NCBI GenBank assembly: GCA_963801355.1
Contig: CAWDEM010000004.1
Location: 1,344,001 to 1,408,000 of the forward strand
DNA: 64,000 nt
Direction: 5' to 3'
Source: Ignavibacteriota bacterium
GTDB lineage: Bacteria > Bacteroidota > Ignavibacteria > UBA10030 > UBA6906
Made by a program: the position numbers and the translations under genes. The notes beneath the pieces are model-generated. The model did not search any database, was not told where the DNA came from, and saw only the letters and a list, made by a program, of their open reading frames with translations. Positions 39,227-48,670 of this stretch are shown here, piece by piece (within the stretch, counting starts at the first letter, position 1; every line of letters begins with the position of its first letter).

Positions 39227-41395
39227 TCAGATGAACAGGGGCGCCAGCACCAGCGTGATGGTGCTCAAGAGCTTCACCAGCACGTGCAGCGAAGGTCCGG
39301 CCGTATCCTTGCACGGATCTCCGACCGTGTCTCCTACGACGGCTGCTTTGTGGGGATCCGAGCGTTTCCCGCCCAAGGCGCCGGTCTCAATGTACTTCTT
39401 GGCATTATCCCATGCGCCTCCCCCGTTGTTCAAGAAGAGGGCCATGAGGATGCCGGTGATTGTCCCCACCATGAGCAAACCGCCGACAACTTCCGGACCG
39501 CTCGCGCCGAAGGTCGGCCGGCCGGCGAGCTCGTAGATCCCCCGGAAAACAAGGCCCACGGCGACCGGCATGCCGACGGCAAGCAGACCCGGCGCGACCA
39601 TTTCGCGCAAGGCGGACTTCGTGGCGATATCCACACACTGGGCATAATCCGGTTTTGCCGTGCCCTGCATGATGCCGGGGTTGTTCTTGAACTGCTCACG
39701 GACGTTGGTAATGATGGCGCCGGCAGCTCTTCCCACCGCTTTGATGGCGAGTGATGAGAAGAGGAAGACGAGGACCGCGCCAAGCAATGCACCCACAAAC
39801 ACTTCAGGCTTGTTCAGATCGATCGCACCGGAAAACGAGGGCATATACGCTTTTACCTCGTCCAGGTACGCGCTGAAGAGGAGGAATGCCGCGAGGGCCG
39901 CGGAGCCGACAGCATAGCCCTTGGTCAGAGCTTTCGTGGTATTGCCTACCGAATCCAGGCGGTCGGTGCGGTCGCGCACCTCTTTCGACTGGTGGCTCAT
40001 TTCCGCGATGCCGCCGGCATTATCCGTAATCGGGCCGAATGTATCCATCGCCAGGACGTAGGCGGCAGTTGAAAGCATGCCCATGGTGGCAACAGCGGTC
40101 CCGAACAAACCGGCATGTGCCAGACCGGAGGCGGTGCCAAGGAAATAGGCGCCTATGATGGCTGCTCCGATGACGAGCACCGGGTAGCCTGTGGATTCCA
40201 TGCCGACTGCGAGGCCGGTAATGATGTTGGTTGCAGGACCGGTTTTTGATGCTTCGGCGATGGAGAGGACCGGCCGGAATCTGTAGTCAGTGTAGTAGAT
40301 CGTCAGGAGCACAAATGCGAGCGACGTCAGCACGCCGACAAGGCCGCACAGAAAGAAGTTGAAATAGTATTCGGCGCCGAGCAGCCACCGGGATGCCACG
40401 AAGAATCCTATCATTGCGAGAATTGCGCTGACATAGAATCCCCGGTTCAGCGCTTTCATCGGGTCTTCTTTGTCGTTTGTCTTCACGGAAAGGATGCCGA
40501 TAGCCGAAGCGATGATGCCGAACGCACGGGCGACCAGGGGGAACATGATGATGCCGGCGAGCGGGAGGCCATTGGCGGCGAAGGTATCCTTGTTGGCGGC
40601 AAAGAGGCCGGCCGCCAGAATCATTGCGCCGATGTTCTCTGCTGCCGTCGACTCAAACAGATCCGCACCGCGGCCTGCACAGTCGCCCACGTTATCACCC
40701 ACCAGATCGGCGATGACCGCGGGATTGCGCGGGTCATCCTCCGGGATCCCGGCTTCCACCTTGCCGACAAGGTCCGCGCCGACGTCGGCAGCTTTGGTGT
40801 AGATGCCGCCGCCCAGCTGGGCAAACAGCGCCACAAAGCTTGCGCCGAATCCATAGCCGACGATGAGCAGGGGGATCTTTTCAATACTCTCAGTGACCCC
40901 GGCCGCTTCCACGGCGGCAAACAGCCCGGCGACACCGAGCAGACTTAATGCCACGACGAAAAACCCCGATACTGCGCCACCACGGAGCGCCGGCTGCAGC
41001 GCGCTGTTCATGTCGCGCGTCGCCCCTGACGCCGTGCGGATGTTGGCGCGAATAGCGACCCACATCCCCATGTAGCCGGCCGCTGCGGAGCAGAGCGCGC
41101 CCAGAACGAACGAGAGCGTTGTCCAGAGCGCCAGTTCCGACGGCGCCGCCGGGTCGTTCGCCGAGTGCGCCCGCACAAATGCATAGAGGATGTAAATGAG
41201 GCACGCCAGGGCCACCGCAAGATAAATGATTGTGCGGTATTGCCGGCTGAGGAAAGCCTCCGCGCCCGCCTTGATGGCGTCGGAGATCTCCCGCATTTTC
41301 TCTGTGCCCGTATCGCGTTTCAGAACATCGCGCATCAGGTAGAGTGCAAACAACAGCCCCAGAATACTTATGCCAAAAATGAGCGTGAGTTCCAT
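39227..41395 (-). CDS. hppA: Membrane-bound H+-translocating pyrophosphatase, K+-independent type
   Basis: GGGIYTKAADVGADLVGKVE, EDDPRN, DNVGD, GPITDNAGG, GDTVGDP. GNTTKA has Lys at the position that marks K+-independent enzymes. Start at ATG 41395. Confidence 0.95.
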   Translation of the reverse strand: MELTLIFGISILGLLFALYLMRDVLKRDTGTEKMREISDAIKAGAEAFLSRQYRTIIYLAVALACLIYILYAFVRAHSANDPAAPSELALWTTLSFVLGALCSAAAGYMGMWVAIRANIRTASGATRDMNSALQPALRGGAVSGFFVVALSLLGVAGLFAAVEAAGVTESIEKIPLLIVGYGFGASFVALFAQLGGGIYTKAADVGADLVGKVEAGIPEDDPRNPAVIADLVGDNVGDCAGRGADLFESTAAENIGAMILAAGLFAANKDTFAANGLPLAGIIMFPLVARAFGIIASAIGILSVKTNDKEDPMKALNRGFYVSAILAMIGFFVASRWLLGAEYYFNFFLCGLVGVLTSLAFVLLTIYYTDYRFRPVLSIAEASKTGPATNIITGLAVGMESTGYPVLVIGAAIIGAYFLGTASGLAHAGLFGTAVATMGMLSTAAYVLAMDTFGPITDNAGGIAEMSHQSKEVRDRTDRLDSVGNTTKALTKGYAVGSAALAAFLLFSAYLDEVKAYMPSFSGAIDLNKPEVFVGALLGAVLVFLFSSLAIKAVGRAAGAIITNVREQFKNNPGIMQGTAKPDYAQCVDIATKSALREMVAPGLLAVGMPVAVGLVFRGIYELAGRPTFGASGPEVVGGLLMVGTITGILMALFLNNGGGAWDNAKKYIETGALGGKRSDPHKAAVVGDTVGDPCKDTAGPSLHVLVKLLSTITLVLAPLFI

Positions 41396-41470
41396 AATAC
41401 AGAAGTCACTCCTTTCTAAGTGAGTGAGGAGCAGCACATGGAGAGTGAATGAACGGTTTGAACGACGGCG

Positions 41471-44578: not shown

Positions 44579-44606
44579 TTGACAACCTCTCCAAATTGCG
44601 TATATT
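44579..44606 (+). promoter_or_regulatory. Strong sigma70-type promoter of the ATP-grasp/GNAT/KamA cluster
   Basis: TTGACA, 16 nt, TATATT. Confidence 0.7.
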
Positions 44607-44681
44607 ACAAACCATAATGAGTTCGTCGAACATTGCGGAGAGGTTCTGGTACATTTATACTCACGGCCTACGTCATCATCG

Positions 44682-45800
44682 ATGACGGTTGCGCTCGTCT
44701 TCAACGCCAAAGCGGAAGCACCACCCACCTCAGCGAACATCCCCGAGCAGGCAGCAGAACCACCATCCAGCTCATCACCCGTTGACGTCACATCACATGC
44801 CGCGCGCACGAATGATGTGTTTGCCGAGTGGGACACCTACGAGACGATTCATGCGGTGCGTGATGCGATCGCCGAACGCTATGACGTCGAGTTGATCGAA
44901 GCGAATGAGGATGCCTTCGAGCGTCTCCGCCGGTTGCGGCCCGCATTTGTGTTCAACATTGCCGAAGGTCTGCACGGCGTGTCACGCGAGGCGCAGGTAC
45001 CCGCGATGTTGGAGCTGTTGCGTATCCCCTACCTCGGTTCCGATCCGCTCACACTCACGGTCTGTCTTGACAAGGCGCGGGCGAAGGAGATCCTGGCGTA
45101 CCACGGTGTCGCCACGGCACCCTTTGTCGTGATTCACGGGATGGACGAATTTGAAGACGCGCGCGTGAAGTTTCCGTCGATCGTCAAACCGTTGCATGAG
45201 GGATCGAGCAAGGGCATCTACAACTCGTGCGTCGTGCGGACGCCCGATGAACTCGAGCGCGAAGTGCAGACCGTGCTCACGGTGTACCATGAGCCCGCCC
45301 TGGTGGAGGAATTTCTGCCCGGACGCGAATTCACGGTGGCACTCATGGGCAACGGTGACGAGGTGCGGGTGTTGCCCATCGTGGAAATCCGCTTTGATGC
45401 GTTGCCCCCCGGCATGAACCCGATCTATTCGTATGAAGCGAAGTGGATTTGGGATACCACGGACAAACCGCTCGAGATCTATGCGTGTCCCGCGCCGCTG
45501 CGGCCGGACGAAGCGGAGGCGATCGAGGAGCTCTGCAGGAAGTCGTACCGCATTCTTCGTTGCCGTGATTGGACCCGGGTTGATGTGCGTATGGATGCAC
45601 GCGGGCGTCCCTGTATCCTGGAACTGAATCCCCTCCCGGGCATTCTGCCGCGTCCGGAGGACAATTCCTGTTTTCCAAAGGCAGCCCGGACAGCGGGCAT
45701 GAGTTACAATGAGTTGATCAACGCCGTTCTGGATATCGCGATGCAGCGCTGCGGTGTCCCCGTCCGCACTCCTGCGCTGGCGTCCACGATGTCACAATAA
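44682..45800 (+). CDS. D-Ala-D-Ala-ligase-like ATP-grasp protein (copy 1)
   Basis: FNIAEG, LDKARAK, KPLHEGSSKGI, EEFLPGREFTV, YSYEAKW, RVDVR, ELNPLPG; lacks the canonical Ddl N-terminal GGxSxE motif. Confidence 0.85.
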   Translation: MTVALVFNAKAEAPPTSANIPEQAAEPPSSSSPVDVTSHAARTNDVFAEWDTYETIHAVRDAIAERYDVELIEANEDAFERLRRLRPAFVFNIAEGLHGVSREAQVPAMLELLRIPYLGSDPLTLTVCLDKARAKEILAYHGVATAPFVVIHGMDEFEDARVKFPSIVKPLHEGSSKGIYNSCVVRTPDELEREVQTVLTVYHEPALVEEFLPGREFTVALMGNGDEVRVLPIVEIRFDALPPGMNPIYSYEAKWIWDTTDKPLEIYACPAPLRPDEAEAIEELCRKSYRILRCRDWTRVDVRMDARGRPCILELNPLPGILPRPEDNSCFPKAARTAGMSYNELINAVLDIAMQRCGVPVRTPALASTMSQ

Positions 45801-45810
45801 CGGATATATT

Positions 45811-46908
45811 ATGGCAAGAAAATTACGAATTTCAATACTTTATAACGAGCCTGTGGTGGGAGACGCAGCAGCCCGGCAGTACATAGCTGAGAACGGCCGC
45901 CTCCTGGAGGGCACTATTGCTCCTCCCCGCGGCCCGGCTGTGCAGGACATGCCATTGCCTCTGGATCTCTCCGAAGTGGGCGTCATGGAAGAGATGGAAG
46001 ACATCAAGACGGCATTGGTCACGCTCGGCTACAAAACACAGATTTTCAATGTTAACAGTGACATCTTCCGTCTGATCGATTATCTGCGCACGGAAAAACC
46101 GGACCTGATTTTCAACCTCGTGGAGTGCCTCGAGAACGAATCCCTCCAGGAGATGAACGTTGCGGGCCTGTACGAACTTCTCAAAATTCCGTACACCGGA
46201 GCGGGTCCTCTGGCCCTCGGGACCGCACTGCACAAGCCCCGCGTCAAGGAAATCCTTCGCGCGCGCGGCATCGCCACCCCGGAATCGCACGTGTTCCGCG
46301 CTGCCGACCGGATCAGCCTTAAGGACGGGCTGACGTTCCCGCTGATCGCCAAACCCGCACATGAAGACGGGAGCGTGGGCATCAGCGATGCATCCATAGT
46401 CACTACTCTCGCCGAGCTGCGCAAACAGGTTCTCCATATCCACCGAGAATTCGCTCAACCCGCACTGGTGGAACAGTACATCGACGGACGAGAGCTGAAT
46501 GTGGCAATCCTCGGCCACAAACATCCTCAGGTGTTGCCGATCTCCGAAATTGATTTTTCGGGACTCCTTCCCGGCATGCATCACATTGTGAGTTATGAAG
46601 CCAAGTGGATGAACGGCACCATCGCCTACCAGGGCACGCAGGGCGTCTGCCCGACAAAGCTTCCCTCCGGCAAAGACGCCGAGCTCAAGCGCGTCGCGCT
46701 CGAGTGCTTTCACCTGATAGGCTGCCGTGACTATGCACGGATTGATTTCCGGCTCACACCCGGCGGGGATGCGTACGTGCTCGAGGTCAATCCCAATCCC
46801 GATATCTCCGACGACGCAGGATTTGCCCGTTCCGCCCGGACCGCGGGTTTGTCCTTCCCGGAGACCATCGGCAAAATCGTGGAATCCGCACTGGAGCGCG
46901 CGCAATGA
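45811..46908 (+). CDS. D-Ala-D-Ala-ligase-like ATP-grasp protein (copy 2)
   Basis: FNLVE, PYTG, KPAHEDGSVGI, EQYIDGRELNV, SYEAKW, ARIDFR, EVNPNPD. Confidence 0.85.
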   Translation: MARKLRISILYNEPVVGDAAARQYIAENGRLLEGTIAPPRGPAVQDMPLPLDLSEVGVMEEMEDIKTALVTLGYKTQIFNVNSDIFRLIDYLRTEKPDLIFNLVECLENESLQEMNVAGLYELLKIPYTGAGPLALGTALHKPRVKEILRARGIATPESHVFRAADRISLKDGLTFPLIAKPAHEDGSVGISDASIVTTLAELRKQVLHIHREFAQPALVEQYIDGRELNVAILGHKHPQVLPISEIDFSGLLPGMHHIVSYEAKWMNGTIAYQGTQGVCPTKLPSGKDAELKRVALECFHLIGCRDYARIDFRLTPGGDAYVLEVNPNPDISDDAGFARSARTAGLSFPETIGKIVESALERAQ

Positions 46909-47399
46909 GCGGGAATGCCGCTACGGTTATCCGGCCGCTGCGCCGTGACGACCGGGAACCCCTCCAACGGCTTGTGGAAGCGACCGGCGTTTTTTCCCCG
47001 GACGAAGTCACCATCGCGCTCGAATTGATCGATACCGTATTGGACGAACCCGGTCAACAAGACTACTGCATCGCTGTGAGCGATGAGGACGGAACGGCCG
47101 TGGGCTACTATTGCCTTGGTCCGACACCGGGAACGACCGGCACGTATGATTTGTACTGGATTGCAGTCGCACCATGGCATCATGGCAGGGGCGTCGGATC
47201 CGCCCTCGACGCGCACGCTGAAGCGTTCGTCCGCTCATCCGGCGGACGTCTCATCGTCGCCGAGACATCTTCGACCCCACGTTACGATGCCACGCGGGCT
47301 TTCTATCACCGGCGCGGATATGCCGAGCTGGCCCGCATACGGGACTACTACAGCCCCGGTGATGATCTTGTGGTATTCGGCAAATATCTTGTCCCATGA
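46905..47399 (+). CDS. GNAT family N-acetyltransferase
   Basis: LYWIAV..HGRGVGSAL acetyl-CoA motif A and FYHRRGY. Confidence 0.9.
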   Translation: MSGNAATVIRPLRRDDREPLQRLVEATGVFSPDEVTIALELIDTVLDEPGQQDYCIAVSDEDGTAVGYYCLGPTPGTTGTYDLYWIAVAPWHHGRGVGSALDAHAEAFVRSSGGRLIVAETSSTPRYDATRAFYHRRGYAELARIRDYYSPGDDLVVFGKYLVP

Positions 47400-47420
47400 C
47401 ACGGAGGATGAAAGGCACGT

Positions 47421-48566
47421 ATGGAACTCTGGCAGGAGATGCTGCGACAGAGTGTGGACAGCGGTAAAGACCTCGTAGAGCGTTTCGGGTTCGACAAGGA
47501 GCTGGCGGACCGGCTGAACGGTTTGTTCCACATTCGGATCAACCCCTACTATCTTAGTTTGATTCGGTACCCGGGTGATCCTATCTGGCTTCAATGTATA
47601 CCCGACGCGAAGGAGCTCGAGGAAGATGGTCTCCCGGAAGACCCCCTCGCCGAAGACTCCCACAGTCCCGTGCCGAGCATCGTTCACCGGTATCCGGATC
47701 GCGTGCTGTTCCTGACGACAAGTCAGTGTTCGATGTACTGCCGGTTCTGCACGCGGAAACGGAAAGTGGGCAATTCGAGCAAGATCAATATGAAGTACAT
47801 CCAGGACGGGATTGACTATATCGCCGCCCATCCCGAGGTGCGCGATGTGATCCTGTCCGGCGGTGATCCGCTGATGCTCACCGATTTCATGCTGGAGAGG
47901 ATCCTTGCAGGCCTGCGGGCCATCCCCCACGTGGAGATCATCCGCCTGGGCACGAAGATGCCGTGCGTGCTGCCGCAACGGTTCACGCCGAAACTGATGC
48001 GCATGCTCCGGAAGTACCATCCCCTCTACATCAACACGCATTTCAATCACCCGTGGGAATGCACCCCCGAAGCCAAACGGGCCTGTGAAATGATTGCCGA
48101 CGCCGGCATCCCCCTGGGGAACCAGTCGGTGCTGATGAAGGGGGTGAATGACGATGCCGATACCATGCTCGAACTCATGCGCAAACTTCTTGCCATGCGC
48201 GTGCGCCCTTACTACCTCTACCAGGCGGATATCACCAAGGGTGCCAATCATTTCCGGACGCCGGTGAGCGTCGGGCTGGATATCATGGACAAGTTGCGCG
48301 GGCATACATCCGGTCTCGCCATTCCTTCTTTTGTCATCGACGCACCCGGAGGGGGAGGGAAGATCCCGCTCCTTCCGCAGTATGTGCTCGGACGGAACGG
48401 CAACCAGATCATTCTCCGCAACTACAAGTACGACATCTTCACCTATCCAGATGTCGAGGAAGAACCGAAGATTCCCACGCCGACCGTCGAGCGCCGGTAC
48501 ACGCGCCGCAAGGCCCGCCCTGCCCGCGTGCGTCCCCAATACATCGGGGAGGATGTACAGGTCTGA
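47421..48566 (+). CDS. KamA family radical SAM aminomutase (lysine 2,3-aminomutase-like)
   Basis: HRYPDRVL, CSMYCRFC (CxxxCxxC), SGGDPL, HFNHP, NQSVLMKGVND, PYYLYQAD and the PLP lysine motif DAPGGGGK. Confidence 0.93.
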   Translation: MELWQEMLRQSVDSGKDLVERFGFDKELADRLNGLFHIRINPYYLSLIRYPGDPIWLQCIPDAKELEEDGLPEDPLAEDSHSPVPSIVHRYPDRVLFLTTSQCSMYCRFCTRKRKVGNSSKINMKYIQDGIDYIAAHPEVRDVILSGGDPLMLTDFMLERILAGLRAIPHVEIIRLGTKMPCVLPQRFTPKLMRMLRKYHPLYINTHFNHPWECTPEAKRACEMIADAGIPLGNQSVLMKGVNDDADTMLELMRKLLAMRVRPYYLYQADITKGANHFRTPVSVGLDIMDKLRGHTSGLAIPSFVIDAPGGGGKIPLLPQYVLGRNGNQIILRNYKYDIFTYPDVEEEPKIPTPTVERRYTRRKARPARVRPQYIGEDVQV

Positions 48567-48670
48567 GTGTTCTGTCGGGTTGTTGAACAGGCATCGCGCC
48601 GGCCGGGATTCCACCGCGCCGGCGCCGCCGTTTTATTGCCTCTCTCTCTCGCAATCCGTAGATTATTCTC

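Follow-up and report, generated by a model that had tools for sequence, protein, structure and literature searches.

A conserved cluster of two Ddl-fold ATP-grasp ligases, a GNAT acyltransferase and a KamA-family aminomutase in an Ignavibacteriota genome: a candidate pathway to an acetylated β-lysyl compound

In methanogens AblA and AblB produce the osmolyte Nε-acetyl-β-lysine, with kamA-yodP as the Bacillus counterpart, and EpmA and EpmB β-lysylate elongation factor P (EF-P). In the PylB-PylC pair lysine is rearranged by a radical S-adenosylmethionine (SAM) enzyme, and an ATP-grasp ligase then links the product to an amine to give a pseudo-peptide. ATP-grasp enzymes also act in peptide pathways independent of non-ribosomal peptide synthetases (NRPS), and N-acetylglutaminylglutamine amide (NAGGN) is an acetylated dipeptide osmolyte. 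Here we describe a four-gene cluster in a 64,000-nucleotide stretch of an Ignavibacteriota genome (GenBank assembly GCA_963801355.1, contig CAWDEM010000004.1, forward-strand positions 1,344,001 to 1,408,000; this whole stretch is termed the window, and positions are counted from its first letter). The cluster encodes two divergent ligases with the fold of the D-alanine-D-alanine ligase (Ddl), a small GNAT acyltransferase and a KamA-family radical SAM/pyridoxal phosphate (PLP) 2,3-aminomutase. Judging from sequence, we consider it somewhat probable that these proteins form a stand-alone pathway, in which KamA would supply β-lysine, the two ligases would build a short amide and the GNAT would acetylate it, yielding a small soluble acetylated β-lysyl compound. 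The pathway is real, widespread, being present in many bacteria and some archaea, and apparently uncharacterised.

The cluster is located between recG and dnaG and has the same GC content as its flanks. A preliminary description of the window had placed four genes here behind a strong promoter; the genes are real, lie at the positions given there and follow a near-consensus promoter (see below). The open reading frames (ORFs) are all on the plus strand, with those of ligase 2 and the GNAT overlapping by 4 nt:

44682..45800, + strand: ligase 1, Ddl-fold ATP-grasp enzyme, 372 aa, with AEWD, NIAEG, R102-E103, EGSSKG, NPLPG and S329
45811..46908, + strand: ligase 2, Ddl-fold ATP-grasp paralog, 365 aa, with an acidic acceptor side formed by D186, D331 and D335
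46905..47399, + strand: small GNAT acyltransferase, 164 aa, homologue of PDB 2R7H and not AblB
47421..48566, + strand: KamA-family radical SAM/PLP 2,3-aminomutase, 381 aa, with lysine 2,3-aminomutase as its best match

The two ligases share 36% identity. Their divergence from Ddl, proposed earlier, is borne out by profile searches: both match Dala_Dala_lig_C, neither matches Dala_Dala_lig_N (PF01820), and both score under every Ddl and Van cut-off shown (e.g. PRK01372, 192.7 and 158.5 bits vs a cut-off of 243). Their AlphaFold models (pLDDT 88 and 86) adopt the Ddl fold, in which a disordered insertion follows the first strand. Ligase 1 compares with Ddl at TM scores of 0.83-0.85, depending on the target, and ligase 2 attains Z scores of 30-35 against Ddl enzymes (34.5) versus 23-24 against RimK/LysX; in the fold ranking the PylC structure 4ffl is found at row 26 (Z 19.4), far below Ddl.

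To compare residues, 35 ligase 1 and 31 ligase 2 sequences were aligned to the DdlB reference, with the roles of the Ddl residues taken from the Ddl literature. K97, K144, E180, E187, R255, D257 and N272 are invariant in all 66 sequences, and E270 is Glu except in four ligase 2 sequences, which have Asp. The cluster ligases resemble DdlA/DdlB and the Van ligases in fold, in the ATP/Mg residues and in the omega-loop Lys, which is kept within the previously noted YEAKW loop of both proteins. They differ from Ddl in the replacement of His63 by Glu (35/35 ligase 1 and 31/31 ligase 2) and of Tyr216 by Trp, in the missing N-terminal domain match and in their location outside the dcw cluster. In ligase 1, R102-E103 is invariant and G276 and S281 are mostly kept; in ligase 2, Asp replaces G149 and G276 (31/31), and H280 and S281 have mostly become Asp and Ala, respectively. 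The GGxSxE motif, reported as missing, is indeed absent, but its Glu seems to be kept in position: Ddl Glu15 aligns with E49 of ligase 1 and E55 of ligase 2 in one alignment, another placing this region differently, and both positions follow the disordered insertion.

In a tree of 46 rows, ligase 2 falls into a single supported clade (13 rows, 96/90) and the nearest ligase 1 sequences into another (8 rows, 99/98), with a weaker wider ligase 1 grouping (93/73). Most named relatives of ligase 1 are Ignavibacteria/Bacteroidota metagenome-assembled genomes. The genome also encodes an unlinked, orphan ligase-2-like paralog (G000:C8:1307213-1308292; L006:8214-9293) with intact catalytic residues and neither KamA nor GNAT nearby, and many relatives likewise show a third ligase match. 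Related Ddl-like domains are also found in fusion with a SAM methyltransferase or an M20 peptidase (L109:4815-6782, L182:4470-6383 and L102:5432-7360) and constitute separate uncharacterised subfamilies.

The Ddl fold could indicate alternative Ddl enzymes that make D-Ala-D-X or a β-lysine dipeptide for peptidoglycan, and scattered GNAT copies in other genomes do adjoin mreBC or glutamate racemase. However, a separate canonical ddl (G000:C4:328955), whose presence the preliminary description had proposed to check, excludes a role of the cluster ligases as the canonical or sole Ddl; furthermore, these ligases differ from Ddl at His63, at Tyr216 and in the N-terminal domain signature. Archaeal-type metagenome loci, so labelled from the name of a cluster member and from neighbours recognised by eye, encode KamA and ligase 1 together with ligase 2 in convergent orientation; the four inspected also have a GNAT from a different family directly upstream of KamA. 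One ligase 1 cluster includes a member named Nitrososphaerales archaeon. We therefore regard a peptidoglycan dipeptide as very improbable; cell-wall modification is the weakest of the products suggested earlier, given the module's presence in archaeal-type loci and the genome's own Ddl.

KamA is the only member of its family in the genome. It possesses the CxxxCxxC radical SAM motif (C103/C107/C110, equivalent to C125/C129/C132 of the Clostridium subterminale lysine 2,3-aminomutase, 2A5H) and the PLP lysine (K314, equivalent to K337). Its R112, D270 and D307 correspond to the substrate residues R134, D293 and D330 of that enzyme, so that the pair of lysine-binding Asp residues noted previously is in place. 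Among the 2,3-aminomutase models, it scores highest with lysine (459.1 bits), followed by glutamate (409) and arginine (336), all below cut-off; it passes only the broader subfamily model TIGR00238, and reaches 235 bits against the EpmB model (cut-off 369). With the same ligase chemistry, the aminomutase could act on another basic amino acid, such as arginine, ornithine or a diamino acid. The sub-threshold lysine score would allow this, and in modules with a single ligase KamA has Gln at D293 and, in both of the two proteins tested, arginine 2,3-aminomutase as its best family match, suggesting that the module can switch substrate. Yet R112, D270, D307 and K314 are all retained in the present protein and its scores are ordered with lysine first, making a different substrate improbable here. 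The two-gene modules with a single ligase and Gln-KamA (L104-L106, L108 and L110) are possibly a β-arginine version. Relatives on plasmids adjoin KamA together with diamino-acid genes (ectB/sbnA/sbnB-like) or the β-alanine gene panD, which speaks for the pathway favoured here, although KamA was missing from two of the four plasmid regions inspected. A cluster with KamA on a Thioflavicoccus plasmid (L090:2557-8038) encodes a diaminobutyrate transaminase, SbnA, an SbnB-like protein, a Ddl-like ligase and KamA; its product is probably another diamino-acid amide.

The known uses of β-lysine were examined in the whole genome, which is 100% complete by marker count. No match to EpmA over the cut-off and no AblB were found in it, and β-lysine 5,6-aminomutase (PF09043) gave only a partial, sub-threshold match of 24.2 bits, with control genomes giving no match either; lysine fermentation by kamA with kamDE was accordingly set aside, and the earlier statement that epmA and lysine-fermentation genes are missing from the window extends, at these cut-offs, to the genome. 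The single EF-P (L088:1489-2052) has Asn at its tip (PGNW). Given these negative searches and the Asn at the EF-P tip, the known uses are unlikely. The cluster does share with EpmA/EpmB the logic of a KamA-family β-lysine source followed by amide formation, and EF-P β-lysylation is a known use of this family, so that a route to EF-P modification that bypasses EpmA could be imagined in a genome without EpmA over the cut-off. However, KamA is far under the EpmB cut-off, the tip of the EF-P is Asn, and PGK and PGN tips both occur with and without the module among 30 chosen genomes; EF-P modification was excluded on the tip residue and on the failure of tip type to track the module, and we give such a route practically no credence. 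PGN and PGK types of EF-P alternate among close relatives.

Comparison of the best 80 of 566 confirmed relatives, a check proposed in the preliminary description, revealed the order ligase 1-ligase 2-GNAT-KamA in 70 loci. The other ten comprise five contig breaks, one locus discussed below (L082) and four non-Ignavibacterial loci with split genes, whose genomes retain KamA in 4/4 cases and the GNAT in 3/4. Phyletic profiles were compiled for 201 genomes of the cluster's own phylum and 201 of a second phylum (that of G201, a deltaproteobacterial record). In the own phylum the ligase family is present in 60 genomes, KamA in 83 and the GNAT in 49. KamA occurs in 58 of the 60 ligase-positive genomes, the two exceptions being a contig end (G128) and a genome with only a methyltransferase-ligase fusion (G015). 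All 47 strong GNAT matches (E < 1e-27) are in genomes with two ligases, while two weak ones are in ligase-negative genomes; eleven genomes combine a single ligase with KamA and no GNAT, and the ligase adjoins KamA in five of the nine of these with an inspected ligase locus. The second phylum has the ligase in 90 genomes, KamA in 132 and the GNAT in 62; GNAT-positive genomes contain the ligase in 61/62 and KamA in 62/62 cases, and only one of 111 ligase-negative genomes has the GNAT. Overall, the full set is present in roughly one in four of the sampled genomes of one phylum and roughly one in three of those of the second. In family f33 and G137 (all four genes in both) and in G201-G203 the genes are scattered yet retained, and scattered KamA adjoins ybeY. 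In three deltaproteobacterial genomes (L163-L165) genes for a two-component system separate ligase 1 from a KamA-ligase 2 pair.

Domain fusions were surveyed in 150 representatives, the best of 1202 at E <= 1e-30. These include three KamA-ligase 1 fusions, in both orders, 17 ligase 1-ligase 2 fusions, 12 with a ligase-1-like partner ahead of ligase 1, and four of a ligase-2-like domain joined to a RimL-type GNAT, a family other than that of the cluster GNAT; ligase 2 is fused to a cluster-type GNAT in L179. In nine fusions an N-terminal ATP-grasp remnant with no more than three of eight catalytic residues precedes an intact ligase 1. The signature of ligase 1 is almost invariant throughout the fusion set, which, set beside the degraded partner domains, identifies ligase 1 as the core enzyme and suggests that it has a physical partner able to lose its catalytic role. 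The fusions are also the evidence for the earlier proposal of a heterodimer of ligase 1 and ligase 2. The core of the module is ligase 1 with KamA, and ligase 2 and the GNAT are an add-on whose members travel together.

An aminomutase beside an acetyltransferase is the ablAB pattern, proposed as an osmolyte pair in Pelobacter carbinolicus (PMC3543383). Like AblAB, the cluster places a lysine 2,3-aminomutase-like enzyme beside a GNAT, with β-lysine as the likely intermediate. However, the 164-aa GNAT gives no match to the 266-position AblB model (TIGR03827), its only close solved relative being the uncharacterised PDB 2R7H (E 3e-35). It also tracks ligase 2 and not KamA: genomes in which KamA is paired with just one ligase lack it. 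Moreover, the two ATP-grasp ligases are integral to the module, and KamA is fused elsewhere to ligase 1 and not to the GNAT. An AblAB osmolyte pathway is decidedly improbable on these grounds, and a simple osmolyte of that type is unlikely as the product. In one locus (L170:8138-10399) a 753-aa protein combines a histone-deacetylase-family domain with a C-terminal copy of the cluster GNAT and directly precedes ligase 1, ligase 2 and KamA, which suggests reversible acetylation.

A different possibility is that the enzymes attach a β-lysyl tag, acetylated afterwards, to a macromolecule, for instance a lipid, an envelope polymer or a conserved protein distinct from EF-P, much as RimK, LysX and the tubulin ligases do. 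The housekeeping-like context (recG/dnaG here, and mreBC, glutamate racemase and ybeY beside scattered genes), the conserved near-consensus promoter, the finding that the cassette has no recurrent transporter, regulator or resistance gene across the compared loci, and a RimK-like third ATP-grasp (see below) would all fit such a role. On the other hand, both ligases are nearest to the small-molecule enzyme Ddl, as is apparent in the Z scores of ligase 2, and a candidate target gene recurs beside the cassette in none of 80 metagenome loci, with EF-P excluded. A macromolecular tag hence remains, in our estimate, a minority possibility.

Under the small-molecule pathway favoured here, KamA would first convert L-lysine to β-lysine, for which the family and the substrate residues are observed. 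Ligase 1 may then activate β-lysine as an acyl phosphate, E49 and E95 holding its two amines, and join it to an acceptor that the alignment predicts to be an amino acid, as ligase 1 retains the Ser with which Ddl binds the carboxylate of its acceptor. Ligase 2, likely as a Ddl-like heterodimer with ligase 1, would form a second amide with an amine devoid of a carboxylate. The likeliest such acceptors, as suggested by its acidic pocket, where Gly276 and Ser281 of Ddl have become Asp and Ala, and by polyamine-gene neighbours, are a diamine or polyamine and the side chain of a lysine. Finally, the GNAT would acetylate either an intermediate or the product itself. The housekeeping neighbours, together with the conserved consensus promoter, suggest a constitutive, polyamine-like cell metabolite and not an exported antibiotic. 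This working logic of a mutase followed by an ATP-grasp ligase is that of PylB/PylC, from which the cluster differs in its PLP-dependent KamA, its Ddl-type ligases and the added GNAT. The making of a small amide by ATP-grasp ligases and an acetyltransferase is likewise shared with the NRPS-independent pathways and NAGGN, although the ligase subfamilies and building blocks are others and the spread across bacteria and archaea is housekeeping-like.

The polyamine neighbours are found chiefly near the closest deltaproteobacterial relatives of ligase 1, where agmatinase and pyruvoyl arginine decarboxylase genes are present at nine of ten loci, often with a gene resembling deoxyhypusine synthase (DHS), the tenth having the deacetylase-GNAT fusion instead. 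In several deltaproteobacterial loci the ligase pair comes immediately after genes of the homospermidine pathway of SpeY, a DHS homologue. The cluster's own genome also encodes a DHS-like protein, agmatinase and pyruvoyl arginine decarboxylase at other sites; the link between the two systems is one of gene neighbourhood, and the main text of the paper on the SpeY pathway (PMC13625781) contains neither the word 'ligase' nor 'aminomutase'. On a genome-wide dependence of the module on homospermidine synthesis the DHS profile was uninformative.

A third ATP-grasp protein, weakly RimK-like, of about 308 aa and outside the named families, is encoded at an unlinked site (G000:C4:432255-433190; L263:2256-3191). 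Within the own phylum it is present in 41 of 48 two-ligase genomes, including those with scattered genes, versus 0 of 153 others, and it is absent from both module-negative members of family f7. Its neighbours vary between lineages, and in four loci (L167, L196, L202 and L209) it lies inside the operon, between the arginine decarboxylase gene and ligase 1. It is a candidate fifth gene that probably takes part in the pathway in its own lineage.

Several points weigh against the pathway as formulated. The residue roles assigned to the ligases would hold only as far as the alignment to Ddl does. KamA, despite scoring highest with TIGR03820 among the family models, misses its cut-off (459.1 vs 525.4 bits) and has no counterpart of the zinc ligand Cys268 of lysine 2,3-aminomutase. 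The GNAT is missing from L082, KamA is present in 54 of the 111 ligase-negative genomes of the second phylum, and the co-occurrence counts cover related, non-independent genomes. The polyamine genes are found at 0 of 76 Ignavibacteria-type, 0 of 13 more distant deltaproteobacterial and 7 of 80 metagenome loci, and the DHS/SpeY family is non-discriminating, given that it is present in 153 of 201 own-phylum genomes and missing from the module-positive G040. The third ATP-grasp is absent from seven of the 48 two-ligase genomes and found in just one of the 201 second-phylum genomes, which makes it at most a lineage-specific partner.

The transcription signals around the cluster are as follows:

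44579..44606, + strand: sigma-70-type promoter, TTGACA-16-TATATT, 11/12 consensus matches
44620..44681, + strand: conserved 5' leader of putative function, with Shine-Dalgarno (SD)-like GGAG at 44637-44640 and in-frame CTG at 44646-44648
48596..48625, + strand: GC-rich hairpin 3' of kamA followed by GCCGTTTTATT, a possible terminator (region z = -3.9)

The promoter ranks first of five consensus-like sites in 7.5 kb. All 71 Ignavibacteria-type relatives with enough upstream DNA have an equivalent site (>=9/12) 5' of ligase 1, with 62 scoring 11/12, eight 10/12 and one 9/12, and TATATT is invariably present, whereas shuffled sequence contains on average 0.15 sites at 11/12 and 4.15 at 10/12. Judged from its consensus match, it would be a strong promoter. 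The hairpin downstream of kamA was not flagged in a terminator scan.

Within the leader, positions 44620-44681 display a palindrome-like TGTT-N-AACA motif and an SD-CTG pair at fixed spacing. The GGAG ends 5 nt before the CTG, which is 12 codons 5' of the ligase 1 ATG. An in-frame CTG with GGA upstream, 13-14 codons ahead of the first strand, is found in 25 of 79 scored loci (near-duplicates included), seven of which lack any ATG, GTG or TTG within 20 codons, and it is plausible from this arrangement that translation of ligase 1 starts at CUG. The leader may possibly act through a CUG start, an operator or a hairpin that sequesters the SD. Its GGAGAG could pair with a CTTCC-like stretch downstream: RNAalifold predicted 0 pairs in the leader, and the helix set by hand pairs in 82.7% of cells versus 40-64% when slid, with covariation not beyond that of shuffles. 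A search of the region against Rfam matched no known RNA, and a conserved upstream ORF in another frame was rejected as not universal. Upstream of recG, a minus-strand ORF (39227-41437), membrane pyrophosphatase-like by eye, appears unrelated to the cluster.

A more elaborate version of the pathway can be sketched, to which we lend limited credence: an ancient core pathway of anaerobic bacteria and archaea, with a ligase heterodimer, the third ATP-grasp in Ignavibacteria, an acetylated β-lysyl-polyamine conjugate as product, tuning of its output at a weak CUG start of ligase 1 and β-arginine sister modules. No literature describing the cluster was found in a search that mostly excluded subscription papers; the 2009 survey of ATP-grasp amidoligase gene neighbourhoods by Iyer et al. 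may already mention it.

The cluster ligases are mis-annotated as additional D-Ala-D-Ala ligases. The gene set is small and directly testable, with the proviso that heterologous expression may need the candidate fifth gene. Identification of the product would provide a function for PDB 2R7H, an orphan of structural genomics, and would explain the presence of Ddl-like genes in archaea that lack peptidoglycan. It would also add a fourth use of β-lysine to the three known ones, namely fermentation, the AblAB osmolyte and EF-P modification.

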